A stretch of DNA of 64,000 bases, from the NCBI GenBank assembly GCA_001774495.1, contig MFAE01000014.1, positions 10,573 to 74,572 of the forward strand, given 5' to 3'. This stretch comes from Candidatus Campbellbacteria bacterium RIFOXYC2_FULL_35_25. GTDB lineage: Bacteria > Patescibacteriota > Minisyncoccia > Phycocordibacterales > UBA12079. Shown piece by piece: positions 16,885 to 41,139 of the stretch. Below the pieces are notes generated by a model. It was not told the DNA's origin and did not search any database. It worked only from the letters and a program-made list of their open reading frames with translations. The translations under genes were made by a program, and so were the position numbers. Every line of letters begins with the position of its first letter. The stretch's first letter is position 1.

Positions 16885-16888
16885 AATT

Positions 16889-17998: not shown

Positions 17999-18081
17999 AT
18001 GATAGGGAGCCACGCTTGCGCGCTTATGAGCAGGTGAGGCAATCACAATATGATTTGTTTATGGTGTGTTAAAATAAACTT

Positions 18082-18372
18082 ATGAATTTTATACTTTTAA
18101 TAATAGTTGCAATAGCAGGAATAATTATCGGAAGTTATTTTGGTGTGAAAAAAGATGGTTTGATTTTTGGGCAAACGAAGAAAAAGAAAGAAAACAAGGA
18201 AAGAATATTGAAATTTTTGGAAACTAATGAAAAAGTGACAAATAATGATATTGAGAAATTATTAGGAGTATCTGATGCAACTGCAACAAGGTATCTAAAT
18301 GAATTAGAAAAAGAGCAAAAAATCAAACAAATCGGCACGGTCGGTCATGCCGTATATTATCGCTTAATGTAG
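18082..18372 (+). CDS. Small membrane-anchored protein with a C-terminal winged-HTH tail
   Basis: N-terminal TM helix; C-terminus ATATRYLNELEKEQKIKQIGTVGHAVYYRL. Confidence 0.45.
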   Translation: MNFILLIIVAIAGIIIGSYFGVKKDGLIFGQTKKKKENKERILKFLETNEKVTNNDIEKLLGVSDATATRYLNELEKEQKIKQIGTVGHAVYYRLM

Positions 18373-18408
18373 CCACGAAGTGGCTGAACGGCTCAACGAG
18401 TTGAGCCG

Positions 18409-20735: not shown

Positions 20736-21036
20736 GATAGAATATAATTGCGAGCAACGGCTCAACGAGTTGAGCCGTTGATTTAAATCAATTTTATATT
20801 TTTTAACATCATATAGATTAAATTTGCACAATCTGTTTTCTTAATATAAAATCTACCTTAGATTTGTTCTCGAAATTTGAATAGTTGTAAAAACTAAAAC
20901 CGAAAGCAATAACCGTTTTTACGGTTTTTTAATTTTACTGAAAAAAGGAGGTGATTAAATTGGTGTAATTAACGAAGTACCTGACAAGAAATAGGAAGTT
21001 CAGCATGACAAACAAAAAAGACCTAAGGAGGTCAAG

Positions 21037-23157: not shown

Positions 23158-23401
23158 AAAAGAAGAAATAATTTACAGCAACTTTAACTTATTGGTTATT
23201 TGGTTTAGGCCTATTCTAGTTATCCACAATTCATCTAAAAAAGCTTGCTTTTTTTTCTGAGTTTAGTATACTAATTAAAGTACTTATTATTTAGCTTGCT
23301 ACTTAATAGGTACTATGAAAGAAATCGCTTCGGCGGTTTTTTTCATATCTACTGAAGCCATTTTGAGTAGAGGTGAAAAAAACTGACGGTGGTTTAAAAA
23401 C

Positions 23402-23637
23402 AAAAATCCACAGTAGCCAGGCTACTGTGGATTTTTGTTTAGTAACTAAAAACTATCGACTATAAACTATAAACTAAAAACTATTCTTTCTCCTCTTTCA
23501 ACTGTACAAAGAATGTTGAACCTTTTCCTTCTCCTTCCGATTCTGCCCCTATCTTAACATCCTTTTCGGATGTTCGGGCGAACATTTTACCACTAAAACA
23601 ATTTATAAAATTGTTTTAGTGGTAAAATGTTTTAGCC
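23402..23637. repeat. Copy A of a repeat family derived from the 3' end and terminator of the histidine-kinase gene at 36506..38092; copy A also carries a ~115-nt hairpin insertion
   Basis: Hairpin aaaatccacagtagccaggctactgtggattttt; micro-repeat ctatcgactataaactataaactaaaaacta; antisense of ...AESEGEGKGSTFFVQLKEEKE*. Confidence 0.75.
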
Positions 23638-23713
23638 AAATTGTTCCAGGTTCAGTGTTGAATTCAAGATTTATGTTTATAGAAACTTGTTTTTGGGGTA
23701 TAATGATAAAATT

Positions 23714-25003
23714 ATGAAAAAACATATTATTATTGCCACCTATGATGGAATCGGTACTTATTATTCAGGAGTGGGGACCATTGCAAAAAATATCGTTGAT
23801 TCACTTACCATTCTTTCAGATAAAATAGACATAAAAGTCAGTATTGCTTATGTGAGTATGGATAAACAATCAGATGTTTTTAATAAAGGATGTTTTGATA
23901 CAGCAAATAATCTAACCATAAAAACTGGAGGTAAAATGATTCCTTTGTGTAACACCACAAAAGGTCAGAGTGAATGGGATATGTGGAGGAGTTTTGATGA
24001 ATGGAGATTTACTTGTGTGTCACTTGTAACTGCTTTAAACCTTATATTAGATGAGAAAGATGACAATATCATTATTCTTAATGACACGCCATTTTTATTT
24101 TTTTCTAAGTATAAAGACTTGGTTTTAGACAAAAATTTAAAATGTTTCTATTTCCCTTTGAGTACCGGGAAAAATCATGCTTTTGGCGATGAAGATTGGA
24201 GAAATCATAGAATTAAAGCCGAAGAAAGGTGTTTCGAAATAGTTCAAAAGGATCCAAATTCAAAAGTAATATCTTTGGGTGAAAAATTTGCTGAGAGAAT
24301 GAATCAAGATTATGGGTTGAAGTTTGGAGAAGTTGACTATTTGCAAAATGGCTTATGTTTTGATAAATATAAAGATTTTCTTGATACTAAGTTTTCTAAT
24401 AAAGATTTACAAAAATATGGGATTAAAATAGAAGAAGACAAAAAAATAATTTTTGCTTGGGGTAGATGTTCTATCGCAAAAGGATTTAAGGAACTTGCAT
24501 TGGCTTGGGTTAAAGCACATAATTTTTTACCAAATCATTATTTACTTTTACAAATACCAAATAATTCAGGCGAGACTGATTACTTCGATGAGATTAAAGG
24601 AATTCTGAAGAATATTCCTAGGGTTATTATTTTAGACAATTTTAATCCAAATATTTGGAAAACAGTTTTAAGGTCAGTAAATACTGAAATTGTTTGCATC
24701 CCCTCATTAATGGACCCTTTTCCTCACACTTCTATAGAAGCAAAACTTTTCTCAAAAGGAATGAATTATATCACTTTAATTAGCGATATCGACGGAGCCG
24801 TAGACGCTTTCCACGAAGATGAGTGTATATATGTTGATCCTAGGGATACAAAAACTTTTACTGATAAAATTATCGAAGTAGCTAATTTAGATAATTCACA
24901 AAAGAGAGAAATGATTGATAAAAACATTCAGACAATTCAAAATTTCAATTTTCCTAAAATCCTTGAAAAATTTATAAATTCGAATTTATTTAAAAGCAAA
25001 TAG
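23714..25003 (+). CDS. GT-B fold glycosyltransferase (GT4-like)
   Basis: DGIGTYYSGVGT N-terminal motif; C-terminal E..K....G......D.DG motif; preceded by the extended -10 tggggTATAAT. Confidence 0.6.
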   Translation: MKKHIIIATYDGIGTYYSGVGTIAKNIVDSLTILSDKIDIKVSIAYVSMDKQSDVFNKGCFDTANNLTIKTGGKMIPLCNTTKGQSEWDMWRSFDEWRFTCVSLVTALNLILDEKDDNIIILNDTPFLFFSKYKDLVLDKNLKCFYFPLSTGKNHAFGDEDWRNHRIKAEERCFEIVQKDPNSKVISLGEKFAERMNQDYGLKFGEVDYLQNGLCFDKYKDFLDTKFSNKDLQKYGIKIEEDKKIIFAWGRCSIAKGFKELALAWVKAHNFLPNHYLLLQIPNNSGETDYFDEIKGILKNIPRVIILDNFNPNIWKTVLRSVNTEIVCIPSLMDPFPHTSIEAKLFSKGMNYITLISDIDGAVDAFHEDECIYVDPRDTKTFTDKIIEVANLDNSQKREMIDKNIQTIQNFNFPKILEKFINSNLFKSK

Positions 25004-25024
25004 ATATTATTTTAAATTATAAGT

Positions 25025-25777
25025 ATGATATTTAGATGGACAATATGGGGGGAATATAAATTAAAAAATATTGAATTATTAAAATATAGTATTCTTTCAT
25101 TTAAAAAACAATTTGGTGAGAGTCATAATTATGTAGTTTATACAGATGATGAAAAAACTCTTAAAGAGAATCTTAGAGGAATTGCTGAAATTTTTAATAT
25201 TAACTCTTGTGTTGAAAATAAATACAACATTAAATCCAAGGCTACTTGGATGAAATGGTGCCCTTTGGTTAAATTAGATATTGATAAAACTGAGATTTAT
25301 GTTGATTCTGATGTTTTTTTGTTAAAATATCCCATTGAAATTGAAAATTTCATTACTAATCCTAAATTAAAATTTGCAATTATGGATGAGTTTTACGGTC
25401 AGCCATGGCAACATGGAGCTATGCAAAAAAGGGCAACAAAAGTTACTCCTTTTGTTAATGCTGGCCTTTTTATTCAAAAAGCTGGATATAGTATTTCCGG
25501 TGAACTTTCGGAAGAATTTGATTGGTGGGTACAAAATATTTCAAAAGATGAACAGACTCATCATGATGAACAGGGAGCACTGGCAGTAGCCTTAACTAAT
25601 TATTTAGAAAAACAAGAGTTATATATTTTACCTAAAGATAAATATATGTTAATTGGTCCAAACGAGAACAAAGGTATAAAAGATCTAGAGCAAGTTATAT
25701 TATTTCATGCGGTTTATCCTGATCACCCAGCTTTTTATAAATTTAAAGATTATCTCGATAAAATACTTAATTTATAA
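25025..25777 (+). CDS. Hypothetical protein, possibly a GT-A-like glycosyltransferase with a DxD motif
   Basis: YVDSDVFLL motif. Confidence 0.35.
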   Translation: MIFRWTIWGEYKLKNIELLKYSILSFKKQFGESHNYVVYTDDEKTLKENLRGIAEIFNINSCVENKYNIKSKATWMKWCPLVKLDIDKTEIYVDSDVFLLKYPIEIENFITNPKLKFAIMDEFYGQPWQHGAMQKRATKVTPFVNAGLFIQKAGYSISGELSEEFDWWVQNISKDEQTHHDEQGALAVALTNYLEKQELYILPKDKYMLIGPNENKGIKDLEQVILFHAVYPDHPAFYKFKDYLDKILNL

Positions 25778-25806
25778 GTAAAGGTTGTAAATGATATAAT
25801 GTAAAT

Positions 25807-27507
25807 ATGAAAAATAAGTCTAAAGTTGCAATTTTAATGTCTGTAAGAAATGAAGAGATTTTGGTTGATTTTAATATTGCATACCATTTAGATTTAGGTT
25901 TCGACTATATTTTTGTTGCAAACCATTGCTCCACTGATCAAACTAATGAGATTTTAAATTCTTACAAGGATAATCCTCGGGTTGTTGTTATTAATGAAGT
26001 TAACCATGTTTTTGATCATGCTAAAATAATCAATAAACTTTTGAATTTTGCAAATAAAAACTTTAAGATTGATTGGCTCGCTTTTTTGGATGTGGATGAA
26101 TTTCTTTCTATTAAAGAGAAAAACATTCATGAATTTGTTGCAAGGTTAGATTCAAAAAGAATTCCTTATGCGACAATAGGATGGGCAAATGCACTATTCG
26201 ATTATACTCATTCAGATTACACATGTTCTCCTGTGAATAAAATAGATACATTAAAATTTTATTATCCTTGGCCAGAAAAAAACTGGCAAGAATATGGACA
26301 TTTCAGAAAGACGATTGTTAAAAACCATAAAAATATTGAAGTAGTTGCTGGAGGTCACTACGTAAAAACTGAAAATAATCTGAGTTTTTTTGGTGAATTT
26401 GATTGGAATCCTTTCGCTATTCCTTTTGAAGAAGCAAAATTATTACATTTTGAATTTAGAGATACCGCGGAAGCTTTATATGAAAAGTGGCAAAAACTCG
26501 CAGAATTTGAAAATGACACTACCTCAAGTAATAGTGCCCCTTGGTTAGAAAGAATTCAGACAATAAGAAAGTATGTAAAATATTATAAAGATGACATTGA
26601 GAGTATAAATAAAAAATGGTTTTATAATCACAGTACTTTTTGGGGGACTACTATCCCAGAAAATAAAATAATTTATGATAATACTTTAGCTTTATGGTAT
26701 GGTAAATATTTAAGAAATAAAATAAAAAAAGGAAAAATAAAATCTTTGTGTTTATTGCGAAGTGGTAATCTGGGGGATGTTATAATGACTGAACCAATTG
26801 CCAGATTTTTATTAAAATATGTTGACGAAATAGTGCTGGCAACTGATGTAGTAAATTTTAATTTAATCAATAAGACTTATAAAAAAATCATTCCGTTTAA
26901 AAGTGCCTTTATAAATAATAGCTTTGACGCAACAATAAGGCTTGCTTATGAATTCAGTGATAATCAAAAAACATATATTCAAGGATTTATGGAGTCTATA
27001 GGTTTCGGAGATATTGTGATTAATGATATCCCTAGTTTGAATAATAATTTTGAGAATATTGTTAATGAAAAATATGTATTAATTGCTCCTCATATTAGTA
27101 GTTGGGAGGATAAGAAGCGAAATTGGGGTTACTTAAAATTTATTGAGTTAGCTGATCTTATCGAAAAAAATTTAAACATTAAAACCATTATTTTAGAAAA
27201 CACCCATACTTTTAAGGAAATGTTATCTTTGATCTATCATTGTGAATACTTTATAGGAAACGATTCTGGCCCAGGAATAATTTCTCAAAGTTTTAATAAA
27301 AAATCTTTTTTAATTTTTGGAGCAACTCACCCTAAATATTTGCATTTATTAAAATCTACTGTATATATATATGATAAGAATAGACACGCTTTATGCCAAC
27401 ATAAAACACGTCAAGAAGAAATTGATTGCTGCGAATCGTTTTGTATGGATAAATTAAGGGTTAATAGAGTATTTGAAATAATAAAAAACAATTATGAACA
27501 AAAATAA
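25807..27507 (+). CDS. Bifunctional glycosyltransferase: N-terminal GT2 domain and C-terminal heptosyltransferase-like (GT9) domain
   Basis: AILMSVRNEE...DQTNEIL (GT2); LLRSGNLGDVIMTEPIARFL and the C-terminal GT9-like region. Confidence 0.6.
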   Translation: MKNKSKVAILMSVRNEEILVDFNIAYHLDLGFDYIFVANHCSTDQTNEILNSYKDNPRVVVINEVNHVFDHAKIINKLLNFANKNFKIDWLAFLDVDEFLSIKEKNIHEFVARLDSKRIPYATIGWANALFDYTHSDYTCSPVNKIDTLKFYYPWPEKNWQEYGHFRKTIVKNHKNIEVVAGGHYVKTENNLSFFGEFDWNPFAIPFEEAKLLHFEFRDTAEALYEKWQKLAEFENDTTSSNSAPWLERIQTIRKYVKYYKDDIESINKKWFYNHSTFWGTTIPENKIIYDNTLALWYGKYLRNKIKKGKIKSLCLLRSGNLGDVIMTEPIARFLLKYVDEIVLATDVVNFNLINKTYKKIIPFKSAFINNSFDATIRLAYEFSDNQKTYIQGFMESIGFGDIVINDIPSLNNNFENIVNEKYVLIAPHISSWEDKKRNWGYLKFIELADLIEKNLNIKTIILENTHTFKEMLSLIYHCEYFIGNDSGPGIISQSFNKKSFLIFGATHPKYLHLLKSTVYIYDKNRHALCQHKTRQEEIDCCESFCMDKLRVNRVFEIIKNNYEQK

Positions 27508-28519
27508 TTTTAAAATAAAACTTTCTTTTGTTAAAGGTTTAAACAAAATTGTTGTAAAAGAAGTCAAAGAAAAAACATCTTATAAAATACTTGAACAAGG
27601 TGTTGATTTTGTTTATTTAAATTTTGATAAAAACTTTGGAAAATTATTTGTTTTAAAAAGTATAGGGTCAGTGAGTATCGTATTAAATGATTTATTGTAT
27701 AATCCTGCGTATTTGTCAAAGCACAAATCTATTTTGAAAGAAGTAATTGATGAAATAATAAATAAAAAGATAGATAAATTTTCTACTTTTAAAGTTTCTT
27801 GCGCTGGTTTAGATTCTCCAGAGGTAAAAAGTATTTCAAAATATATTGGAGATGAGTTTAAATTAAAGGAAAATGTAGAAGCAGATTTAAAAATTAATAT
27901 CGCTAAGGTTAACGATTTATGGGAAGTATCTGTTCAAGCCACAAGAAGGCCACTTTCTTTTAGAAGCTATAAAATTGTTAATATGAGTGGAGCCATGGAT
28001 CCTACAATCGCCTATGCTCTGAATGAGTATTGTAATGTAAAGAAAAAGAAAACATATCTGAATGCTTTTTCTGGAAGTGCGACTTTGTTGATTGAAGCTG
28101 GGTTAAGTAGCCAAGATTTAGAAACTTTAGTTGGTTTCGATAATGATAAATCACATTTGACATTGGCTTATCAAAATATAAAACAAGCAGGTTTAATTAG
28201 AAGGATAAAACTTCTTGAGCATGATATATATGAACAGCCAAAAATAGGGAAATTTGATGTTATCGTAGCAGATTTACCCTTTGGTATGGTTATTTCAAAA
28301 AATGAAGACTTGGAAAAAATGTATACCGCTTTTGTAAATTTTGCCGAAAATTCTTTAGAGGAGAAGGGTGTCTTAGGGGTTTATACTAATGAGTATAGGT
28401 TGTTTAAAGAGGTGTTAGATTTATCTAAATGGAAAATTATCGAAGAAGTTGACTTAAAGCTACCAACAAATGTTAATTCATATTTATATCCAAAAATATT
28501 CGTATGCAAGAAAATATAA
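27494..28519 (+). CDS. Class I SAM-dependent methyltransferase (UPF0020/RlmL-like, DLPFG motif)
   Basis: AFSGSATLLIEAG and VIVADLPFGMV. Confidence 0.5.
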   Translation: MNKNNFKIKLSFVKGLNKIVVKEVKEKTSYKILEQGVDFVYLNFDKNFGKLFVLKSIGSVSIVLNDLLYNPAYLSKHKSILKEVIDEIINKKIDKFSTFKVSCAGLDSPEVKSISKYIGDEFKLKENVEADLKINIAKVNDLWEVSVQATRRPLSFRSYKIVNMSGAMDPTIAYALNEYCNVKKKKTYLNAFSGSATLLIEAGLSSQDLETLVGFDNDKSHLTLAYQNIKQAGLIRRIKLLEHDIYEQPKIGKFDVIVADLPFGMVISKNEDLEKMYTAFVNFAENSLEEKGVLGVYTNEYRLFKEVLDLSKWKIIEEVDLKLPTNVNSYLYPKIFVCKKI

Positions 28520-29844
28520 TCGAATTAGATTTAAAAAAATACTTATTGCAATTTTCAGATAGCAAGGTTGATTTTTATCGTTTCCCTGGAAATTATGGAG
28601 ATTCTTTGATTTATCACGGAACAAAAACTTTATTAGATGAGTTAAATATAGGCATTGATCTTGTTGAAATAGATTCTGATGTTATTAATGATATTTTATT
28701 TATCGATGGTGGAGGGAATTTTGTGGATGAGTATGACGATGTTTATAATTTTCTAGTTAAAAAACACAGAATGTATAAAAAAATCGTATTATTACCTCAT
28801 ACAATTAGAGGAGAAAAAGAAGCTAGACTTATTCAGTCTTTGGATTCGAATGCAACTATTTTTTGTAGGGAAAAAATCACCTATGAATTTGTTAAAAAGA
28901 ATGCAAAAAAAGCAGAGTATTATCTTTGGAGTGATTGTGCTTTTTACAACGATTTAATAAATTACTTAGAAGTTGGTGAGGGAATTTTAAATTCTTTTAG
29001 AGTAGATGTTGAATCAAGCAAAAAAGAATTACCTGCTGATAATGAAGATATCTCATATGACGGATGGTGTATGAAGCCTTTGAAAGACTTTCTTGGAAAA
29101 ATACAAAAATATGAAGAGATTAGAACTGATAGATTACATGTTGCTATAGCTAGTGCTATGCTCGGTAAGAGAGTATTGTTTTATTCTAACTCGTATTATA
29201 AAAATAAGGCAGTTTACGAGTATTCGCTAAAAAAATACCCACAAGTCATATTTGTATATGAAAATGATTATAATCTAATTTCCTATAATCAAATCCGTTC
29301 TGTATTTTTGGAACATCTTAATAGTGAGACTGTTAAAACAAAAGATAATGTTTTGGATTTATTTAGTGAATTAATTTCTATAAACCATAAATTATGGCAC
29401 TTTGAGGACCTAGCAAGAAATTTAGAATCAACTGATAAATTAGTGAGAGAAATTAAAAAAAATATTGATAAATCAAATCAATCAAGAAATGATCTTATCA
29501 GAAAAATTGATTTTAATTTAATTGATCTACTAAACAACAAAGAGAGTAAGGATATAGAAAAGTTTATCTCTGAAAGTCCTGCTGTATTTATAGATAGGCT
29601 TTCAATTATGTTTATAAGAAAGTTTGAGATAGAAAGGCTTGTGTTTTGTATAAATGATAATCAAAATTTGAATGATATTTATATTCAAAAATTAGATGTA
29701 ATTAATAGTCAGATTAATTTTAATGGCAAGTTTTTAGAATCTCTTTTTAATAAGATAAGATTAGGAACAATATTTTTCAAAATATTTAATCCTGTAAAAA
29801 TATATAATGATCATAGAATCCAAAAATATATAGCTAAAACATAA
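28504..29844 (+). CDS. Polysaccharide pyruvyl transferase family protein
   Basis: FPGNYGDSLIYHG motif. Confidence 0.55.
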   Translation: MQENIIELDLKKYLLQFSDSKVDFYRFPGNYGDSLIYHGTKTLLDELNIGIDLVEIDSDVINDILFIDGGGNFVDEYDDVYNFLVKKHRMYKKIVLLPHTIRGEKEARLIQSLDSNATIFCREKITYEFVKKNAKKAEYYLWSDCAFYNDLINYLEVGEGILNSFRVDVESSKKELPADNEDISYDGWCMKPLKDFLGKIQKYEEIRTDRLHVAIASAMLGKRVLFYSNSYYKNKAVYEYSLKKYPQVIFVYENDYNLISYNQIRSVFLEHLNSETVKTKDNVLDLFSELISINHKLWHFEDLARNLESTDKLVREIKKNIDKSNQSRNDLIRKIDFNLIDLLNNKESKDIEKFISESPAVFIDRLSIMFIRKFEIERLVFCINDNQNLNDIYIQKLDVINSQINFNGKFLESLFNKIRLGTIFFKIFNPVKIYNDHRIQKYIAKT

Positions 29845-30130
29845 AAAGAGGGTAGACCTAAGGCACAAAGCATTTTTTACAGATAAAATAAGAGTTGATG
29901 AAAACAAACCTCAATTATATGGGGCACAAGTTAGAAAAAAAGAAAACGGAGAAATAGAATTAATTGAAATAGAAGACAGAGAAAATGTAAATAAAAGGAG
30001 AAAGGAACTTGGGATGGAATCGCTAGAGAAGTATTTGGAACAATTTGGTGTTAAGTAAAAAATTAATAGAAATTCTATTTTTAATTAGATTTATTTAAAA
30101 GTAACTTAAAATTTTAATAATCTCCTACAC

Positions 30131-30385
30131 CTGTGGATTTTTATTTAGTAACTATCGACTATAAACTATAAACTAAAAACTATTCTTTCTCCTCTTTCAA
30201 CTGCACAAAGAAAGTAGAACCTTTTCCTTCTCCTTCCGATTCTGCCCAAACTTTTCCTCCGTGAGCTTTTACGATTTCTTTTATATTTTAACATAATTTT
30301 AAAAATTTTTAGTTTTTTATTGACATTTTTATTGACAGTTACAAGACTTTTGCTTGACAAAATAGTTTAGGTTGTTATTATTTAA
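30131..30385. repeat. Copy B of the HK-3'-end-derived repeat, fused to a module carrying three TTGACA boxes
   Basis: ~100 nt near-identical to the antisense of the HK C-terminal codons, then ttttatattttaacataattttaaaaatttttagttttttattgacatttttattgacag...cttgacaa. Confidence 0.75.
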
Positions 30386-30442
30386 GTAAACACAGTTCTT
30401 TATGGTAAAGTAGTCTTAATTTAAGAAAATAAGGAGAATGCA

Positions 30443-30529
30443 ATGAATACAGAGATGACAATCGAAGAAGTTTTTAAAAAGGAACGTCGCGGGCCAAAGG
30501 GTGGTTGTTCTAACGGAATCGCGGTGTAA
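30443..30529 (+). CDS. 28-aa small peptide MNTEMTIEEVFKKERRGPKGGCSNGIAV; candidate precursor peptide
   Basis: SD aaggagaatgcaATG; own promoter upstream; hairpin terminator gaggtgacgcaagtcacctc downstream; ATP-grasp gene follows. Confidence 0.4.
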   Translation: MNTEMTIEEVFKKERRGPKGGCSNGIAV

Positions 30530-30616
30530 TAACACCAAGCTCTTTTTTAGCAGAGAGGTGACGCAAGTCACCTCTTAACTTTTTTAGAAATCAGATTTTA
30601 ACAAAAGGAGCTTAGA

Positions 30617-31576
30617 ATGTTATTAATATTTTCTAGTACCTTGTCAAAGAAAAGTTTTCAACTCCAATTATTTGTAGAGGAAATGAAAAGAAGAGGTCTT
30701 CCTTGTGTTGTTGTTGATGTTCATGACATCGCTACTAATACAAAATTCTCAATTCAGCATAGTAATGATGGTGCATTTTTGTTTGAAGATGGTCAAAAAA
30801 TAATATCACCCCAAAAAGTTTATGTCATGAATGTTTGGAGAACTGATTCAATTATACGTTTACCCCCAGATTTTGATAAACCTCAATTGATTAGAAACAG
30901 AGTCTCTCAATTCGTAAATGATATTCGTTTTATTTTTGAAGATTGCATGTGGGTTCCTGGGAGAATTGAGGATATTGAGCGGGCTGATTCAAAAATGAGG
31001 CTATTCAAAGAAGCAGTTAGTTGTGGCCTCAATGTTCCTCGTTTTACAATCGATTCGCCTCATTACGATGGTAAGTTTGGAATTCCCGTCTATAAAAAAA
31101 GTCTTGGGTACCCATTTTCTATTTCTTACTCTAAGCAAAAGAAAAAAGAGGTTGCAGTTATTACGACAAATCTTCTTGTTGACAAGGAAAGTGATTCTGT
31201 GGGAGATGGTTTATTGTGGCAGTGGCAAGCTCCAATTTTGTCGAGCAAACAGATTCGGTGTCATGTTGTTGGAAACAAAATTTGGTCGGTAATGTGGGAT
31301 CGTGGTGTTTGTGGCGTTGAAGATTACAGGCATACATCCAACATAAAAAATGAAGTCATCAATTGGAAGCCCCACTCTCTTCCGGCGGAGATTTCTTCTC
31401 AAATTTTAAAATTAATGAAAAACCTTTCTGTGTGTATGGCAAGCCCAGAGTTTCTCGTTGATAAAAACGGGGATTACATATTAATTGACCTTAATCCTTG
31501 TGGTGATTGGTATGGGTTCTTCTCTAAAATTCAACGCAAAGAAATTTTGGACTCGATTATCCAGTTGTGTTGTTAG
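30617..31576 (+). CDS. ATP-grasp ligase (RimK/MdnC-like)
   Basis: FGIPVYKKSLGYPFS, RCHVVGNKIW, and C-terminal EFLVDKNGDYILIDLNPCGDW resembling the ATP-grasp DxNxxP region. Confidence 0.55.
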   Translation: MLLIFSSTLSKKSFQLQLFVEEMKRRGLPCVVVDVHDIATNTKFSIQHSNDGAFLFEDGQKIISPQKVYVMNVWRTDSIIRLPPDFDKPQLIRNRVSQFVNDIRFIFEDCMWVPGRIEDIERADSKMRLFKEAVSCGLNVPRFTIDSPHYDGKFGIPVYKKSLGYPFSISYSKQKKKEVAVITTNLLVDKESDSVGDGLLWQWQAPILSSKQIRCHVVGNKIWSVMWDRGVCGVEDYRHTSNIKNEVINWKPHSLPAEISSQILKLMKNLSVCMASPEFLVDKNGDYILIDLNPCGDWYGFFSKIQRKEILDSIIQLCC

Positions 31577-31631
31577 GGAAAAATTTTTGTTCGAAACTTG
31601 TTGTAACCAGATAAAGGTTGCAACAAGTTTT

Positions 31632-32195
31632 TTAAAAATATTTTTTAACTTTTTCCGTATAATTTGGGTCTGATATATTGTGGTTAACATCGGGAATTAT
31701 AAAAATCTCTTTTTTAGGAGCAATGATTTTTTTGTAAGAAATTTTTGAACGACGAATTGTTAGTGGCCATTCATTACTACCAACTAAAAAAGTTGTTTTT
31801 GCAGATATTTGTTTTGGAAGTCTTGTAGATTTAAATTCCAACATTCTTCTTTTGCCAAGTATTTTAAAAGCCAAATCTGGTAATTTATTAATATCATCTT
31901 CAAAATAAGGGGATAAAGAGCAAGATATAATTTTGTCTATTTTCGTCTTTTCACTTGCTAATAATGCAATGAAAGCACCAAAAGAAAAACCTATCACTGT
32001 TGTATTTTGATGACTAGAACCAACTTTTTTTGAAAAATCACTCACCCAATCAGACATTTTTTTGTATTTCCATTCGGGTTCCCAAAAAACAACATCGTAC
32101 CCCTTTTCTTTTCCAGATTTTATTAGTTGTTTGTATCCTAGATTTTTTGGGGATTCATGATACCCAGGAATTATATATAATTTTTCTTTTTGCAT
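31632..32195 (-). CDS. Small alpha/beta hydrolase (Ser_hydrolase/YdeN-like); paralog 1 of 4
   Basis: LYIIPGYHES N-terminus and GFSFGA nucleophile elbow. Confidence 0.5.
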   Translation of the reverse strand: MQKEKLYIIPGYHESPKNLGYKQLIKSGKEKGYDVVFWEPEWKYKKMSDWVSDFSKKVGSSHQNTTVIGFSFGAFIALLASEKTKIDKIISCSLSPYFEDDINKLPDLAFKILGKRRMLEFKSTRLPKQISAKTTFLVGSNEWPLTIRRSKISYKKIIAPKKEIFIIPDVNHNISDPNYTEKVKKYF

Positions 32196-32242
32196 AATAA
32201 TTACTACTTACTACTTAATACCCAATACTTGATACTTGATAC

Positions 32243-32560
32243 TATTCTTTCTCCTCCTTCAACTGTACAAAGAATGTTGAACCTTTTCCTTCTCCTTCCG
32301 ATTCTGACCCTATCTTAACATCCTTTTCGGATGTTCGGGCGAACATTTTACAACTAAAACAATTTATAAAATTGTTTTAGTGGTAAAATGTTTTAGCCAA
32401 ACCTTTCCTCCAGGGGCTTTTACTATTTCCTTTATATTTTAACATAATTTTAAAAATTTTTAGTTTTTTATTGACAGTATGCTTAAACGAGAGTAGCATT
32501 CAAGCGTAAGAGTTTGTATAGGATAAACTCTGTTCTTTGAGTATTTTTCAGATGGAAACT
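32243..32560. repeat. Copy C of the HK-derived repeat, with the same ~115-nt hairpin insertion as copy A plus the TTGACA promoter module and a palindromic leader
   Basis: ttattgacagtatgcttaaacgagagtagcat then caagcgtaagagtttgtataggataaactct. Confidence 0.75.
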
Positions 32561-32580
32561 TGTTTTAAGGAGGTTTCGTT

Positions 32581-32796
32581 ATGTCAAAGTGGACAGACAA
32601 GGATACGTCGGATTATTCGGGGGATTCCCCGAGTAAGGTTTCATCAGCAGAACATCAGGCTCGCGACGATGCCGAAAGGGCTGGATTATTTGAACGTGGT
32701 AATTCTGAGAAAAACAGGGAGCGTTTCAGCCACACAGATGAATCTGGTAAGGAGGCGACAAGTTTTTGGGAATCCATTTTCGGATCCAAAAAATAA
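32581..32796 (+). CDS. 71-aa hydrophilic small protein, GC-richer than its surroundings
   Basis: SD aaggaggtttcgttATG; terminator ggcgggcaaatggaaaaaatgcccgcc downstream. Confidence 0.45.
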   Translation: MSKWTDKDTSDYSGDSPSKVSSAEHQARDDAERAGLFERGNSEKNRERFSHTDESGKEATSFWESIFGSKK

Positions 32797-32974
32797 GAAG
32801 TGTGGTGTTGATTTACGGCGGGCAAATGGAAAAAATGCCCGCCACTTTTAATTTATCTTGTTTTTGTTGTATTATATTAAGATAAATCATGAACCATAAA
32901 ATGGTTTCTTATAATTAATTTAATGGCGAATAAGTTAAAATTACAAATCATTTTTATAATTTAAAGCAATTAAT

Positions 32975-33511
32975 ATGAATAGAATTTATAATATAAAATA
33001 TACAGATGCCTATTATATTGATTTATCTTACGGGCATAACAAAAAATTACATAAGACAAAATTATCAGAGCATGAGGCTTATGGGTATGCAGAAAAATAT
33101 GGTAATAATATCGTAATTGCTTTTATAAAAGAAGAAAAAGACGATAGAAAAATCTCAGATAAAATAAAAAGAAAGGAGCATCTCATTAAAGGGATTATTG
33201 TTCCGGATACATCCATTCTATCTAAATTAACAAGTTTTAAAAGAAATATTTTCAAAAATATTCCTTTGGGATCAGAGGTGGTTGTTAATTGGAGAGATAT
33301 AGTTATTGTTGCAAATCAATCAAGATATGACTGTTCCACTATGTATACAGAGGGAGTATTTTTTAGAAACGAAGAAGATCATATTGTTTTAAAAAATCCA
33401 GAAACTATTCGTACCTATCCGACACCAGTTACAAATCATCCGATGGAAAAACCTCTTTTTTATGTTATTCCGAAGTCGTTTATCGTTGATATTTCTCCTG
33501 TAAATAATTAG
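32975..33511 (+). CDS. Hypothetical protein
   Basis: 178-aa ORF with local codon usage; no recognisable motifs. Confidence 0.35.
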   Translation: MNRIYNIKYTDAYYIDLSYGHNKKLHKTKLSEHEAYGYAEKYGNNIVIAFIKEEKDDRKISDKIKRKEHLIKGIIVPDTSILSKLTSFKRNIFKNIPLGSEVVVNWRDIVIVANQSRYDCSTMYTEGVFFRNEEDHIVLKNPETIRTYPTPVTNHPMEKPLFYVIPKSFIVDISPVNN

Positions 33512-33512
33512 A

Positions 33513-33758
33513 ATGGAAAAAAATAATTTAAAAAAAGAGAGAGAAGAAAACCAAATTGTAGAAATTATTCTGCACGATGATTCAAATACAATAAAAAAGT
33601 ATAAATGTGTTGGTGTTCTGATGAAAGAAAATGAAAAAACGTTAAGAATTGGATTTAACGCTGTTGAAAATGTTGTTAAAGATTATTTAGATATTAAGAA
33701 AAAAAATATAGTGGATATAAAAACAATTAATCCGAAAGAAATTTCTTCTTTATTTTGA
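33513..33758 (+). CDS. Hypothetical small protein
   Basis: 81-aa ORF immediately following the previous one. Confidence 0.3.
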   Translation: MEKNNLKKEREENQIVEIILHDDSNTIKKYKCVGVLMKENEKTLRIGFNAVENVVKDYLDIKKKNIVDIKTINPKEISSLF

Positions 33759-33785
33759 GGTTAAATTTATTTCTATCAATGCCTA

Positions 33786-34080
33786 AAAAATCCACAGTAG
33801 CCAGGCTACTGTGGATTTTTGTTTAGTAACTAAAAACTATCGACTATAAACTATAAACTAAAAACTATTCTTTCTCTTCCTTCAACTGCACAAAGAAAGT
33901 AGAACCTTTTCCTTCTCCTTCCGATTCTGCCCAAACTTTTCCTCCATGAGCTTTTACGATTTCTTTTATATTTTAACATAATTTTAAAAATTTTTAGTTT
34001 TTTTATTGACAGTATACTTAAATGAGGGTAATATTTAAGTGTAAAAGTTTGTATAGTACAAACTTTGTTCTTTGAGTAGC
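33786..34080. repeat. Copy D of the HK-derived repeat with promoter TTGACA-17-TAATAT and a palindromic leader
   Basis: Full hairpin, micro-repeat, ~100-nt HK 3' antisense, tttttattgacagtatacttaaatgagggtaatat, agtttgtatagtacaaact. Confidence 0.75.
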
Positions 34081-34123
34081 TTTTACTCTAAATTTTTTTG
34101 TGCCAAAAAAGGAGGTGGGAGAA

Positions 34124-34237
34124 TTGGGCAAAGATATTATTGAGAAGATTATTCGTGATTCCTGTTATTTGGATAATTATTGTGACACACCGGGATATAA
34201 TGATCATTCCGGAAGTGATGAACATAACAAAAATTGA
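34124..34237 (+). CDS. 37-aa small peptide (TTG start) MGKDIIEKIIRDSCYLDNYCDTPGYNDHSGSDEHNKN; candidate precursor peptide
   Basis: SD aaggaggtg 5 nt upstream of TTG; hairpin terminator ggagggtgtggtaaaaacaccctcc; radical-SAM gene 74 nt downstream. Confidence 0.4.
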   Translation: MGKDIIEKIIRDSCYLDNYCDTPGYNDHSGSDEHNKN

Positions 34238-34310
34238 TGGAGGAAAAGTTGAAGGAGGGTGTGGTAAAAACACCCTCCTTCTTTAATAAAAAAGGTAATG
34301 AGGTGTTACC

Positions 34311-35399
34311 ATGTTTTATCCGACGCTTAAAGTTGTTTCTAGTAATTGTAATTTAAGATGCGTTTATTGTTATTACAAAGGAATTCACAGAAAAAAACCA
34401 ATAAGGATGAATGATATAACTTTAAAGAGCATAATTCAAAAATTATTAGCACTTAGCGGCGAAGAGAAAGAAGTTCATTTTTACTGGCACGGAGGAGAGC
34501 CTCTTTTAGCCGGAATAGATTTTTATCAAAAGATTATTTTACTGGAAAATGAATTAAATGTGTATGGTAAGAAAATCTGTAACCATATTCAAACAAATGC
34601 CACTTTGTTAACCGATAATTGGGTAGATTTTTTAGTGGGCAATGATTTTAATGTTGGAATTAGTCTTGATGGTCCAAAAGAAATTCAAGACGTCAATCGG
34701 CCAACTATTTCTGGGGGAGGGAGTTTTGATTCTGTGATGAAAGGTTTGAAACTTTTTCAAGAAAGAGAAAAATTTCCTAGTATCATTTCGGTTGTAACCA
34801 ACGAATCCCTCGGTAATGCTAACAAAATCTTTGATTTTTTTGTTGAAAACAAAATTAAAAGATTTTTACCAAAGGATTGCTGTGAAAGAGATGAAACTGG
34901 TAAATTTCTTCCTTTTTCAACAACTCCCGATGAGTATGTTGATTTTTTGATTGAATTATTTGAGTGTTGGATGAGTAAAAACGATCCAACTATCGAAATT
35001 AGAAATCTCTACCAAATAATCAGGGGTGTTGTTGGAGGGAAGACAACCCTTTGTGAGTATAGTGGGAGGTGCCATTTGTTCTTGACGATTGAGTATGATG
35101 GAACAATTGGCGGTTGTGACAGTTTCCCTGTAAAAAATTATCCAATGGGGAACATAAATGATTCCGCTGTTAGCAGTATTTTCGGGAGTCATGGTTATAA
35201 ATCTTTTTTAAGGGATATGGAATCAACAAGATTAGACTGTCACCATTGTGAGTGGTTTGGCAATGTTTGTGGTGGTGGGTGTTTGGGTCATTCCTATTCC
35301 GAACAAAATTCTGCTTGGGGGAAAAATATTTTTTGTACTCCCAAAAAGAGACTCTTTGAATATATAAAAAGAAGAGTCTCCGAAATACAAAATAATTGA
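34311..35399 (+). CDS. Radical SAM enzyme with C-terminal SPASM domain (anSME-like peptide/protein maturase)
   Basis: CNLRCVYC radical-SAM cluster, WHGGEPLL, auxiliary clusters CEYSGRCH and CHHCEWFGNVCGGGC. Confidence 0.8.
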   Translation: MFYPTLKVVSSNCNLRCVYCYYKGIHRKKPIRMNDITLKSIIQKLLALSGEEKEVHFYWHGGEPLLAGIDFYQKIILLENELNVYGKKICNHIQTNATLLTDNWVDFLVGNDFNVGISLDGPKEIQDVNRPTISGGGSFDSVMKGLKLFQEREKFPSIISVVTNESLGNANKIFDFFVENKIKRFLPKDCCERDETGKFLPFSTTPDEYVDFLIELFECWMSKNDPTIEIRNLYQIIRGVVGGKTTLCEYSGRCHLFLTIEYDGTIGGCDSFPVKNYPMGNINDSAVSSIFGSHGYKSFLRDMESTRLDCHHCEWFGNVCGGGCLGHSYSEQNSAWGKNIFCTPKKRLFEYIKRRVSEIQNN

Positions 35400-35453
35400 G
35401 TGAAACGGCAGGTAAACACATTGTTGCCTGTCGTTTTTTAATAAGATTTTAAA

Positions 35454-36434
35454 TTACCTTATTATTTTAATAATTTCACTTATAAAGTGTTTATCTATTT
35501 TTTTATTATCGTTTAAATATTCTTTGATCAGAGGATGTAGGTTTATCGCTATAAAAAAGTACACACCTATTTCATCATTTCTAGTTATGTTGCTTTTGTT
35601 ATTTTTAACAGATATAAAAGTATTTTTGTATTTTTTGAGATTTGAAGACGTTGTTTCTTTCGGGTGTTTGTAAAAATATTTATTTGACAAAAATCCGTGG
35701 TAAGAAAACAAAGAATGAACGACAATTTCTTCCATGGTATTTCTCAGGTCACGATAGGGTATTATTTTACTCTTCCCATTCTCTTCATAGAAATGACTGC
35801 TAATTATTCTAATTTTTTTTCCAAATAGCATGTGTAAAAATTCATGGTAAACAACAGATATTGCGTTGTTCAAAATCTCTTTTCCTGTCTCTGAAAGGTC
35901 GTTGCATTCAATTGTTATCCCTTTGTTTTTTAAGTTAGCTCCACCAGATACAATCTTATTTTTGTAAGGGTGTTGCAGTAGATAAATATCAAATTTTCTT
36001 CTTCTAATTTTACCGAATAAAGTTTCTAAAGCATTTATTATTTTTGGTAAAGTCTTATTAATTTCTTTTGTTAATATTTTAATATTTTTTTCTAAAATCT
36101 GGGAATTCCAGATTTCTTTGAATTTATCTTCAAAAATATCAAAAATTTCTTTTAATTCTCCTAGCTCTGTTTTTGTGACAATCTTTGAAAGATTTTTCCA
36201 AACCTTTTTTTCTTTACTTGTGATAAAAAATAATCCTAAATAATTTGCAAAATTATATTTTTGTAAAATTTTTTTAAATTGTTCTAGTGAATTTTTTTCT
36301 TTTTTTGATAAATCGCCGATTTTATTCAGCCAAACTTCATTATAATTTTTTCTGCAAGAAAAATGCCATTCTGTTAAATTTGAAACAAAGAAAAATTTAT
36401 TACCCATTCTGCTATATTTAATATTAAATTGCAT
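35454..36434 (-). CDS. Hypothetical protein
   Basis: 326-aa ORF, AT-rich and lysine-rich, no motifs recognised. Confidence 0.4.
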   Translation of the reverse strand: MQFNIKYSRMGNKFFFVSNLTEWHFSCRKNYNEVWLNKIGDLSKKEKNSLEQFKKILQKYNFANYLGLFFITSKEKKVWKNLSKIVTKTELGELKEIFDIFEDKFKEIWNSQILEKNIKILTKEINKTLPKIINALETLFGKIRRRKFDIYLLQHPYKNKIVSGGANLKNKGITIECNDLSETGKEILNNAISVVYHEFLHMLFGKKIRIISSHFYEENGKSKIIPYRDLRNTMEEIVVHSLFSYHGFLSNKYFYKHPKETTSSNLKKYKNTFISVKNNKSNITRNDEIGVYFFIAINLHPLIKEYLNDNKKIDKHFISEIIKIIR

Positions 36435-36505
36435 ATCTATACCTGTGGATTTTTATTTAGTAACTACAAACTAAAAACTATCGACTATAAACTATAAACT
36501 AAAAA

Positions 36506-38092
36506 CTATTCTTTCTCCTCTTTCAACTGCACAAAGAAAGTTGAACCTTTTCCTTCTCCTTCCGATTCTGCCCAAACTTTTCCTCCGTGTGCTTTTACGA
36601 TTTCTTTTACTAAATAGAGACCCAAGCCCGTTCCCATCACACTAACGCTGTTGGCATTTTCGAGTCTGATAAATTTCTTGAAGATTTTGTGAGCTTCCTT
36701 CTTTGGTAATCCGATACCAGTATCTTGTATTTTTAATAGTATTTTATGAGCTTTTTTTGATAGGCTAATATGAATAGAACCCTTCGGAGTATATTTGATT
36801 GAATTATCAATCAAATTGGTGACAATTTGTCTTATTTTTTCTGGGTCAATTTGTGAAAAGAATATTCCTTCTTGTAATTCAAATTTCATTTTTAGGCCTT
36901 TTTCTTCAATAACATGTTTCATGTCATTAACGACTTCTTGAACTATGGGTTTAATATCGGCTTTAACAAAATTAAATTCAATTTTACCTCTCTCTATCCT
37001 TGAAAGGTTAAGGAAGTCGTCTACGATAAAAGCTAGATTGCTACTTGATTGAAAAATTCTTTTAATTATTTCAGAAATTTTTTCAGATGTCGGTCCGTAT
37101 GATCCTTCCATCACCATTGAAGAGTAGCCCTTTATGGAAGCAATAGGGGCTCTTAATTGGTGAGAGGCAACGGAAACAAAATCAGATTTTTGTTGGTCAA
37201 GTTTTTTAAGTCTAATATTCGCTTTTTCAAGTTCCTCTGCAAGTAATTCGATTTTTCTTTTCGCTTGTATTTCTTTGAAAATACTTCTGTTCAGGAGAAC
37301 CACAAAAATGACCATCATGACAAATAAGGCAAAATTTATCATCCATTCATCTACCGAATTCGTTGGCTTCAAAAAATTAAACAAGAAGATTAAGGCCATT
37401 GCTCCAGAAAAAAGTTGAGCAGAGATTATTTTTGTATTTAAAAATTTGTATTTAAGGATAGCGTAACTTACAAAAAATACATATAAGATTATAAAATAAT
37501 TTCCAAAAGGATAAATATTGAAAAGTTGAGGAAAAAAGTTTGTAATTCCCCCACTGAAACCAATAAATCCAGCAATTATTTGGTTTCTTATCTGCCCACG
37601 GTAAAGATAATCTTTTTTATTTTTTAAGTATGTTTTTATTAGATACAGTAAAGAGATTATTATTATAATTATAAAAAAGGTCGGAAATAAAAAATAATAT
37701 TTTCCGGGATCTACCCAATAAAAATCAAAAGTTTTTACCACTCCTAGTTTGAACAATGGAGAAAAACTAAAAATTGCTAATAATCCAGTGAGAAAAAGGA
37801 CAGCTTTTTTAAAATTAGTTTTTTTTATTTCTAAAAAATTAAAAATAAAATTAAGATATAGAATAGGAATAAAAATTGCTGTAAAGTCTAAGCAATATAA
37901 CCATAATAAAGCTGAATTTTCTGTTTGGGAGTAAGCCCCTTTGTAAAGAAAAATGCTCCAAAAAGCAATAAATATAGATAAAATTAACCAAGATTTATTT
38001 AGTTTTGATCTTCTGTTGCTAGAGTATACAATTAAACCAAAACCGATACTGGTAAAAAAAGTTATAATACTTGTTATTCCAAATAATGTCAT
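36506..38092 (-). CDS. Sensor histidine kinase (polytopic N-terminal membrane domain, HisKA and HATPase_c)
   Basis: SHQLRAPIASIKGY H-box; GTGLGLYLVKEIVKAHGGKVWAESEGEGKGSTFF G-box region; its 3' end is the source of the repeat family. Confidence 0.8.
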   Translation of the reverse strand: MTLFGITSIITFFTSIGFGLIVYSSNRRSKLNKSWLILSIFIAFWSIFLYKGAYSQTENSALLWLYCLDFTAIFIPILYLNFIFNFLEIKKTNFKKAVLFLTGLLAIFSFSPLFKLGVVKTFDFYWVDPGKYYFLFPTFFIIIIIISLLYLIKTYLKNKKDYLYRGQIRNQIIAGFIGFSGGITNFFPQLFNIYPFGNYFIILYVFFVSYAILKYKFLNTKIISAQLFSGAMALIFLFNFLKPTNSVDEWMINFALFVMMVIFVVLLNRSIFKEIQAKRKIELLAEELEKANIRLKKLDQQKSDFVSVASHQLRAPIASIKGYSSMVMEGSYGPTSEKISEIIKRIFQSSSNLAFIVDDFLNLSRIERGKIEFNFVKADIKPIVQEVVNDMKHVIEEKGLKMKFELQEGIFFSQIDPEKIRQIVTNLIDNSIKYTPKGSIHISLSKKAHKILLKIQDTGIGLPKKEAHKIFKKFIRLENANSVSVMGTGLGLYLVKEIVKAHGGKVWAESEGEGKGSTFFVQLKEEKE

Positions 38093-40725: not shown

Positions 40726-40847
40726 ACTAAAATTATACCTTAAAACCTTTTATCGTAGAATGTTAAAGAGGGGATATTTATTAATTTTTTATCTGTTTTC
40801 GAAACAAAACCCCAAAAACCTTTGTTGAATTAAATTTTCTTTTATTT

Positions 40848-40977
40848 AAAAAAATGTTTAGCTGGAGCGGGGGATTAAAGAGAAAACCGTTGACATACAG
40901 GTCTGTTCTGTTACCATTAAGTCGATAGTTCTTAGGTAGTTTGCCTGTAATCTTTGGAAAAAAAGGAGGTGGTAAAA
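40848..40977 (+). promoter_or_regulatory. Promoter/leader cassette P1: G-rich box, TTGACA-16-TACCAT, conserved ~45-nt leader, SD AGGAGGTGGTAA
   Basis: tgtttagctggagcgggggattaaagagaaaaccgTTGACAtacaggtctgttctgtTACCATtaagtcgatagttcttaggtagtttgcctgtaatctttgg..aaggaggtggtaa. Confidence 0.6.
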
Positions 40978-41139
40978 GTGAAAGAGTTGTTGGGTAACAA
41001 CGGAGAAAGAGGAACCCCTTTCCTGTTAGGGTTTCTTGAGAAGATTGAGGTTCCACCAACTGGCTCAGCAAATTGCGCCACATATGTTGGAGCCACCCCA
41101 ACTCCAAGCGGAGACGCTTACGATTACGATCAAGATTAA
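40978..41139 (+). CDS. 53-aa small protein (GTG start) KELLGNNGERGTPFLLGFLEKIEVPPTGSANCATYVGATPTPSGDAYDYDQD
   Basis: Driven by cassette P1; SD 6 nt upstream; bidirectional terminator at ~41165-41215. Confidence 0.4.
   Translation: MKELLGNNGERGTPFLLGFLEKIEVPPTGSANCATYVGATPTPSGDAYDYDQD

Follow-up and report, generated by a model that had tools for sequence, protein, structure and literature searches.

Tandem accretion of DNA at the 3' end of a protein-coding gene is known from ICESt1, ICESt3 and the cis-mobilizable elements (CIMEs) at fda, and from the composite staphylococcal cassette chromosome (SCC) islands at rlmH/orfX. DNA can also enter by a Campbell-type single crossover, and the minimal mobile elements of Neisseria are exchanged by homologous recombination between conserved flanks. 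Two further arrangements bear comparison: the pln and spp loci of lactobacilli, in which one promoter recurs ahead of each operon and answers to a kinase, a response regulator and a peptide, and pilS/pilE, in which silent partial gene copies are used for gene conversion. Members of the bacterial Candidate Phyla Radiation (CPR) have very small genomes; to our knowledge few mobile elements have been described in them, and their gain of accessory genes, such as peptide-antibiotic-like clusters, is poorly understood. Here we analyse a 64,000-nucleotide (nt) stretch (the window) of contig MFAE01000014.1 from the CPR bacterium Candidatus Campbellbacteria bacterium RIFOXYC2_FULL_35_25, in which the last codons of a histidine kinase (HK) gene recur in five copies that border four blocks of inserted genes. 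We tentatively read these blocks as cassettes inserted one after another by recombination at the kinase tail, which would make the locus a concrete case of a conserved kinase tail serving repeatedly as a landing site or homology arm for cassettes in a CPR genome.

The array resembles the accretion, CIME and SCC islands in having an intact target gene at one end, direct repeats of the 3' end of that gene at the borders, and cargo blocks that are partly without a recombinase. It departs from them in several ways: no recombinase was found in the window; the repeats, 100-180 nt long, vary at their inner ends and are not a short fixed core; the cassettes measure 1.5-6.7 kb; in three of them the repeat is joined to a common outward promoter; the host belongs to the CPR; and neither excision nor polymorphism was observed among 12 near-clonal assemblies. 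With Campbell-type insertion and the minimal mobile elements it has mosaic repeats in common, and it would also share an arm duplicated by insertion via resident-gene homology, with no need for a dedicated enzyme; minimal mobile elements, however, replace each other between two different flanking genes and leave no arrays of partial genes, whereas in our locus the repeated unit is a single short arm, the HK tail, and every cassette brings a promoter of its own. Like the pln and spp regulons, the locus has a near-identical promoter region ahead of peptide operons and a histidine kinase at its edge. Unlike them, its kinase operon exists in relatives that have no peptide cassettes, and its repeats include dead kinase sequence; no response regulator (Response_reg, LytTR) and no inducer-peptide gene were found in the window open reading frames (ORFs) scanned. 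As in pilS/pilE, promoter-less partial copies of a gene's 3' end lie in direct orientation near the expressed gene and show signs of sequence exchange with each other. We nevertheless rejected pilS-like variation, as the copies specify the amino acids already present in the HK tail and would yield no variant proteins. In host group and enzyme types the locus is like the CPR peptide clusters in which ATP-grasp ligases co-occur with SPASM enzymes, zincins and alpha/beta hydrolases, and in which, as here, small, poorly conserved precursor genes adjoin their maturases (Makarova et al. 2022, PMC8939145). The available part of that paper mentions neither repeated kinase-gene tails nor common promoter modules; the 28-amino-acid (aa) peptide found here is without the TxxxT...D..D signature quoted there, and our ATP-grasp protein scores far below the family cut-offs.

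A kinase-gene 3' end repeated at cassette borders

Coordinates refer to the plus strand of the window; the HK fragments are read on the minus strand and their copies are named A to E (Table 1). A 28-nt core from the HK 3' end, GAACCTTTTCCTTCTCCTTCCGATTCTG, occurs exactly five times, at 23518, 30217, 32279, 33902 and 36543, where shuffled sequence is expected to give 0 matches and no shuffle gave one. All five copies are direct and in one orientation, with the intact HK gene at the right end of the array, and their borders flank the four inserted gene blocks in the 13 kb downstream of that gene. The HK-derived part comprises 34 codons and the stop in B, C, D and E, and 23 codons and the stop plus a 12-nt stub in A. 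The first-pass annotation, made from the letters of the sequence, had proposed such a five-copy family of HK tails, and the exact cores bear it out. It had further assigned a terminator and a micro-repeat to every copy, which is correct in part: the 31-nt micro-repeat is exact at 23453, 30152, 33837 and 36478 (copies A, B, D and E) and absent from C, and the complete terminator hairpin is present in A and D only, B and E retaining its HK-proximal arm in a gapped alignment. The left flank of copy B (30093-30124) resembles the 3' end of the 326-aa protein gene next to copy E, which indicates that B once had an E-like flank.

The same copy order and junctions are found in contigs of 12 independent assemblies at 99.9-100% identity, produced with MEGAHIT, SPAdes, IDBA and by JGI, and several of these contigs span 3-5 copies. 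Every copy can be told apart by flanks found nowhere else and by diagnostic variants peculiar to it, so that duplication during assembly, a concern raised with the initial proposal, finds no footing at the junctions. Several contigs do end near the cassettes, and single-nucleotide polymorphisms (SNPs) fall inside repeat copies, as might follow from repeat collapse or chimeric joining; given 12 assemblies that agree on order and junctions, we regard an assembly artefact as excluded for practical purposes, with a negligible residual chance.

Two side observations concern the make-up of the repeats. Copies A and C have in common an insert of 87-89 nt (23549-23637 and 32310-32398) that holds a 51-nt perfect palindrome and interrupts the kinase fragment between its W codon and its A codon, with a GG duplication; it is MITE-like (miniature inverted-repeat transposable element), and no further copy was found in the window or in the related loci retrieved. 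The terminator hairpin (CCACAGTAGCC…GCTACTGTGG) also stands 3' of the S16 gene, and heptamer micro-repeats of the ACTAWAA, ACTTACT and GCTGTAA types occur in several intergenic regions; these elements lie at 61550-61584, 60868-60905, 61600-61665 and 32196-32241, so hairpin and micro-repeats are genome-wide spacer features and not specific to the kinase.

The copies derive from a kinase-type gene

The HK gene is the last of an acyltransferase-HAD-HK operon that is kept in relatives. Its nearest homologues, at 65-67% identity, are named at source as Candidatus Campbellbacteria, and the next ones as Patescibacteria; a protein search of species-representative genomes returned distant kinases only (at most 39% identity), and the known occurrences of this locus are all in groundwater metagenomes. 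The kinase tail (…VKEIVKAHGGKVWAESEGEGKGSTFFVQLKEEKE) is the G2 box of HATPase_c and aligns with the tails of the homologues. In Campbellbacteria the HK gene is followed by a hairpin, AAAAAAT(G/T)(C/T)CCAGTAGC…GCTACTGG…TTTTTT, beyond which lies a convergent AspS gene; copies A and D carry the orthologue of this HK/AspS terminator hairpin, and no HK-tail repeats are present in those AspS-flanked relatives. Because the tail is a conserved G2 box and the hairpin is orthologous to the relatives' HK terminator, the copies derive from an HK-type gene and not the reverse. This comparison of HK C termini among related genomes settles the direction of copying that had initially been left open, from a functional HK-type gene to the copies, and it contradicts the suggestion that the cassette supplied the present C terminus of HK, since that tail is a conserved domain box followed by a native terminator. 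We accordingly discarded the cassette as inventor of the HK C terminus; it may have swapped the present tail, only for an equivalent HK tail.

What follows the kinase differs among the relatives examined: AspS in L013-L020, KsgA in L071, and in our window the gene for the 326-aa protein. Where HK identity is 63-67%, the relatives carry no cassettes, and their HK 3' end is followed by AspS or KsgA; no variant of this flank was found within the same species. In the window AspS lies at 58801-60219, 21 kb off and on the opposite side of the kinase operon, and this displacement indicates that a rearrangement breakpoint coincides with the kinase 3' end. Separately, JGI assembly 3300025088 (L021, L036) has an 11-bp deletion at 36944-36954 that splits the kinase into ORFs of 384 and 154 aa, which points to a sub-population whose kinase is broken or else to a mistake in the assembly; the truncated HK protein cluster P0001, considered as a rearrangement, proved to reflect this deletion in one assembly.

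Divergence and mosaic structure of the fragments

The 34 codons hold 13 real variable sites, 11 of which are synonymous third-position changes, and both non-synonymous sites are in copy C. Neutral change would be about 21-27% synonymous, so that 11 of 13 has P = 5e-6 to 9e-5; among B, C and D alone, about 10 synonymous changes stand against 2 non-synonymous ones. In fragments B and D a start codon is absent and the first codon is a stop in frame, and hence they are not under coding selection where they now lie. Were dead copies refreshed by the resident HK, a synonymous share of only about 37% would still be expected (our own estimate, not computed by a tool), and C and D hold synonymous variants that the resident HK does not have. 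This synonymous bias shows that the fragments diverged as parts of functional HK genes, as alleles of other lineages or in a paralogue, and not by in-place decay.

Adjacent segments of the repeat group the copies differently. In the hairpin and micro-repeat A equals D (62/62, 100%) and B resembles E; in the last 23 codons (k1) A goes with C (97%) against B, D and E (96-99%); in the next 11 codons (k2) C is the outlier at 81-86%; and in the promoter arm B equals C (100%). Such incongruence requires crossovers inside the repeat. The 28-nt core is invariant, with 0 of 9 codons variable against 11 of 25 outside it (Fisher p = 0.017). A second population, represented by the ANAN16-1 assemblies, differs by 4 SNPs over 17 kb, 3 of them in copies B and D, and each of these three switches to a variant present in another copy. 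We also tried to order the copies from oldest to youngest and rejected the series, as allele types alternate along the array (A~C, B~D~E). Together, the mosaic segments and the synonymous-biased divergence make recombination anchored on the HK 3' end, as the first-pass annotation had suggested, the best-supported origin of the family.

A predicted promoter and leader fused to three of the copies

The HK fragments of B, C and D are fused at one identical nucleotide to ATTTTAACATAATTTTAAAAATTTTTAGTTTTTTATTGACA. This promoter arm is identical between B and C (41/41), has one extra T in D and is absent from A. Its three TTGACA sites rank among the best promoter-consensus matches of the region; promoter-like sites there number 86 against 80 expected from shuffles, which is no excess, so the promoter call rests on conservation and position and not on the scan. 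A 17-nt spacer between the -35 and -10 elements, originally ascribed to all three copies, holds for C and D; in B, where a 12-nt tandem duplication has produced three TTGACA motifs, the best pair is 16 nt apart. The leaders of C and D have about 100 nt in common, including a 5' hairpin that folds at the same place. Described at first as palindromic in both, the leader is perfectly so in D and imperfectly in C, the outer pair being A-U in D and G-C in C, a compensatory change. Leader B has the -10 region and parts of the leader in common with C and D, without the hairpin.

As predicted, small ORFs with Shine-Dalgarno sequences begin at 30443, 32581 and 34124. Each peptide gene is followed by a hairpin (z-scores of -4.8 in B, -1.9 in C and -5.75 in D). 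A precursor gene followed by a hairpin is the usual layout for making more precursor than enzyme transcript, and these hairpins probably lower read-through into the enzyme genes; the module as a whole would combine a predicted promoter with a putative attenuator. Repeat, promoter arm and leader have no match in Rfam at the gathering score, and below it the hairpins gave chance-level microRNA matches (E 0.03-1). The idea of a recombining promoter cassette holds in so far as one promoter and leader are fused to three HK fragments with mosaic segments. It does not hold as simple in-place copying: A has no arm, and neutral decay is not seen in the dead fragments.

Related loci in other genomes

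Searching metagenome contigs for the 326-aa family gave 29 loci. An exact 25-nt core had no match in genome or metagenome contigs, and neither a degenerate core pattern nor the 326-aa family had one in viral contigs. HK-tail fragments do occur at cassette borders in two other groundwater contigs. The Hainich groundwater contig L058 carries them at 250-318, 2725-2811 and 5288-5344, and a shorter one at 3886-3915, all in one orientation and about 2.5 kb apart. Its first block encodes a Cys-rich peptide with a radical SAM (rSAM) enzyme and a HELTH-motif protein, and its further blocks a NUDIX/NTPase pair and a SPASM remnant with a 326-aa-family gene; its two fragment types differ by 6 synonymous and 3 non-synonymous codons, counted by eye. 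In L070 an HK tail separates a promoter from a 326-aa-family gene, and the start of that gene overlaps the HK stop. The fragments of both contigs begin at nearly the same codons (K-I/V-W|A-E-S).

A mirror case is found in L024, from a more distant relative, where the same operon's acyltransferase gene has its 5' end (about 50 codons), together with its divergent promoter, in 4 copies around two rSAM operons (Table 1). Intergenic repeats occur in at least 14 of about 32 related loci, and near-identical promoter-leader modules without any gene fragment are found in L041, in L069 and in a second family in our window.

Proposed serial insertion and its alternatives

We favour, at a probability of roughly 45%, the serial insertion of cassettes by recombination at the HK tail, through ordinary homologous recombination. 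The island downstream of HK would consist of four cassettes, each bordered by a direct copy of the HK 3' end. The incoming DNA would be a circle that integrates by one crossover in the manner of Campbell, or alternatively a linear piece whose two arms are a dead HK copy and the HK body; either route would restore the kinase at one end while leaving a dead tail at the opposite one, and further rounds would build up an array of dead tails. Three of the cassettes (B, C and D), which have unrelated cargo, would form one family, in which an outward sigma-70-type promoter and a 5' leader, fused to the HK arm, drive a peptide operon. The repeat is a stretch of a conserved resident gene and the repeats are mosaic, as such a process would leave them, and the tail fragments at cassette borders in L058 and L070 lend support. 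A homologous route is favoured by the lack of a recombinase in the 64 kb, the length of the repeats, their variable inner ends and the 5'-end repeat of L024; the RecA-type rather than dedicated-recombinase pathway, and the order of events, are inferred.

Several observations weigh against serial insertion. Window ORFs of at least 90 aa yielded no domain of an integrase, a transposase or any other recombinase, and the 12 near-clonal assemblies (at least 99.9% identity) show neither presence/absence polymorphism nor a circular junction. The allele types along the array are not a simple time series. To account for the hairpin insert common to A and C, a further duplication or a site-specific insertion is needed. 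Promoter-leader modules have been duplicated without a gene fragment in the second family, L041 and L069, which shows that promoter copying alone occurs. The synonymous signal could stem from another HK paralogue within this genome instead of from other strains, and neither the L058 nor the L070 contig includes its organism's intact HK, which makes the origin of their fragments an assumption.

Could an insulated promoter module, made up of terminator, HK tail, promoter and leader, have been duplicated in place and selected for co-regulation, with the HK tail a passive hitch-hiker? The single fixed HK/promoter junction of B, C and D would fit, near-identical modules ahead of different operons are common (the second family, L041, L069, L024, and at least 14 of about 32 loci), and, judging by the reported co-occurrence of CPR ATP-grasp loci with SPASM enzymes, zincins and alpha/beta hydrolases (PMC8939145), B to D could be one cluster. 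Duplication in place expects neutral divergence, however, and not the roughly 10 synonymous to 2 non-synonymous changes seen in these copies; copy A has the HK tail without the promoter arm, the segment groupings are incongruent, and no homologue of the ATP-grasp gene occurs in the about 32 loci that carry the 326-aa family. We hold this account to be doubtful. Site-specific integration, in which the G2-box sequence is the target of a tyrosine or serine recombinase whose gene lies elsewhere, or of a Xer-type enzyme of the host, and the repeats are attL and attR sites of a tandem, recombinase-less (CIME-like) accretion, would have to reconcile long repeats of 100-180 nt, whose inner boundary differs among A, B-D and the L058 copies, with the action of such an enzyme. 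No recombinase gene lies in the 64 kb or in L058, no relatives are found on viral contigs, and the L024 repeats, a 5' end with its promoter, are not a product of integrases that restore a 3' end. The mechanism is unlikely on these grounds, even with an intact target gene at one end, 3'-end direct repeats at every border, a core that is invariant in all copies, and breakpoints that fall near K(I/V)W|AES in L058 and L070 and, for the A and C insert, exactly at W|A with its GG duplication.

The fragments might also be functional themselves, as antisense RNA to the 3' end of the HK mRNA, as a small protein of 34 aa, or as donors for gene conversion of the HK tail. Copies A and C do hold an ATG-started 34-aa ORF in the HK frame, called by gene finders; read-through is possible at B and E, which have no complete terminator; and SNPs swap between copies. 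But the 34-aa ORF has no Shine-Dalgarno sequence and matched only itself among 5.8 billion proteins, conversion yields no variants when the amino acids are those of HK, and the common promoters point away from the fragments, all of which leaves a function of this kind highly improbable.

A broader proposal can be made for CPR bacteria, one we consider possible though well short of probable: recombinase-less cassettes would home to the G2-box end of HK genes, carrying a replacement tail and an outward promoter, and so rebuild the kinase, leaving a dead tail behind and installing a peptide operon. Such homing would be a promoter-bearing, integron-like form of gene capture run by homology or by a host enzyme, and the replacement tail would be kept functional by selection.

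Cassette cargo

The claim that the three promoter-fused copies precede small-peptide genes is upheld: two of the peptides have identifiable candidate maturases for peptides that are ribosomally synthesized and then modified post-translationally (RiPPs), and the peptide of cassette D has homologues elsewhere. Copy A does stand upstream of a glycosyltransferase cluster, as described at the outset (Table 1).

Table 1. Positions of the repeat copies, promoter modules and cassette genes in the window, and of the L024 repeats on their own contig.
Feature	Position	Strand	Description
Copy A	23398-23650	-	full hairpin 23398-23440, micro-repeat, HK codons -23 to stop 23481-23548, insert ~23549-23637, 12-nt HK stub
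Cargo of cassette A	23715..29844	+	glycosyltransferase, methyltransferase and pyruvyl-transferase cluster
Copy B	30125-30283	-	half hairpin, shortest version of the micro-repeat, dead HK fragment 30180-30283
Promoter arm and leader B	30284..30442	+	best pair TTGACA 30354-30359 / TATTAT 30376-30381
28-aa peptide gene	30443..30529	+	MNTEMTIEEVFKKERRGPKGGCSNGIAV; strong hairpin after it, 30553-30576
319-aa protein	30617..31576	+	candidate distant MvdC/MvdD-type ATP-grasp peptide maturase
187-aa protein	31632..32195	-	serine-hydrolase-like; directly downstream of dead copy C, in HK orientation
Copy C	32242-32434	-	dead HK fragment: k1 32242-32309, insert ~32310-32398, k2 32399-32434; no hairpin, no ACTAWAA micro-repeat
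Promoter arm and leader C	32435..32580	+	-35 32471-32476, -10 TAGCAT 32494-32499, 5' hairpin
71-aa protein	32581..32796	+	hydrophilic; hairpin after it, 32818-32845
178-aa and 81-aa proteins	32975..33758	+	no assigned function
Copy D	33786-33968	-	full hairpin 33786-33824, micro-repeat to 33864, dead HK fragment 33865-33968 (34 codons and stop; in-frame stop at the junction)
Promoter arm and leader D	33969..34123	+	-35 TTGACA 34006-34011, -10 TAATAT 34029-34034; 5' hairpin AAGTTTGTATAGTACAAACTT, Shine-Dalgarno GGAGGTGG
37-aa precursor-type peptide	34124..34237	+	TTG start, conserved C-terminal PGYNDHSGSDEHNKN; hairpin after it, 34251-34281
Radical SAM/SPASM peptide maturase	34311..35399	+	Pfam PF04055 and PF13186
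326-aa protein	35454..36434	-	directly downstream of HK, whose terminator is truncated
Copy E	36437-36609	-	HK-proximal half hairpin, longest heptamer micro-repeat, HK codons -34 to stop 36506-36609; continues into the intact HK gene
Intact histidine kinase	36506..38092	-	7TM-HisKA-HATPase_c (Pfam)
Acyltransferase 5'-end repeats, contig L024	7333-7653, 9634-9950, 12458-12599, 14439-14576		97-99% identity

In cassette B, the 28-aa peptide has T, E and K residues, and no homologue of it was found in the related loci retrieved. The 319-aa protein matches NCBIfam models over its full length with E 6e-19, at 68 bits against cut-offs of 350-475, and ATP-grasp ligases in PDB with E 5e-8. The 187-aa gene, convergent with that of the 319-aa protein, is part of the same cassette.

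The three proteins of cassette C have homologues in the same order on the Hainich groundwater contig L069, at 68% (71 aa), 53% (178 aa) and 47% (81 aa) identity. On that contig they are bracketed by a perfect 50-nt direct repeat (195-244, 1393-1442), each copy of which lies just upstream of a promoter, the second promoter preceding a gene for a DUF397 protein. In our window the hairpin after the 71-aa gene has a cluster of SNPs (32827, 32836 and 32850) and several contigs end at 32822, making 32822-32850 a local hot spot of strain variation outside the repeats.

Cassette D has the make-up of an rSAM/SPASM RiPP cluster, with rSAM and SPASM domains in one enzyme beside a small conserved precursor gene. 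The best family matches of this enzyme are of the anSME, DynA and GrrM types, all under the equivalog cut-offs. The gene of the 37-aa peptide is real: homologues ending in PGYNDHSG(S/D)(D/P)(E/D)H(N/T)K precede the rSAM homologues in L039-L041, and a related peptide in L023 has the N-terminal part in common and is without the PGYNDHSG motif. In the loci with the closest rSAM homologues (L023, L024 and L039-L041), a 326-aa-family gene is convergent with the rSAM gene. An alignment of this family shows an invariant HExxH + E motif, which makes its members putative metallopeptidases, as well as EWHFSCR and GGANL motifs. As a single sequence or as a profile the 326-aa protein has no Pfam, NCBIfam or PDB match, and its single-sequence structure model was unusable (pLDDT 38). 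Two conserved items can be defined, a PGYNDHSG peptide family with an rSAM/SPASM enzyme and an HExxH partner, and the common promoter and leader, which could serve for studying how genes are regulated in these organisms. A 535-aa rSAM 'fusion' (P0123) was set aside, as it comes from a contig of coverage 2 with unrelated genes.

Neighbouring islands

A second, unrelated promoter-leader family, with TTGACA, a conserved leader and GGAGGTGGTAA, is present in 4 copies further along the window. Two are full, at 40830-40985 ahead of a 53-aa ORF (40979-41139) and at 49960-50115 ahead of a 63-aa ORF (50112-50303); two are partial, at 49103-49169 just upstream of a C39-like gene (49185-49940) and at 51639-51741 just after an M16-like gene (50411-51637). 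Further downstream lie a radical SAM gene (52862-53908) and an MMPL exporter (54012-56288). This part of the window, with its promoter-leader copies at 40.8-51.7 kb, has the look of another peptide-production region and is free of kinase fragments.

On the other side of the array, the 3' end of a tRNA-Ala gene (13564-13588) is repeated at 13822-13846, and long palindromes occur at 13579-13648, 13842-13895 and 14131-14263. This region (13514-14263) looks like integration remnants at tRNA-Ala, just before a defence-type island. The defence-like block itself (14371-20061) encodes a helix-turn-helix regulator, an EcoRI-type adenine methyltransferase (14706-15776), a GmrSD/HNH nuclease (15781-16884), a winged-helix protein and a UvrD-like helicase, and a motif of 25-31 nt recurs at 14401-14431, 18387-18411 and 20755-20785.

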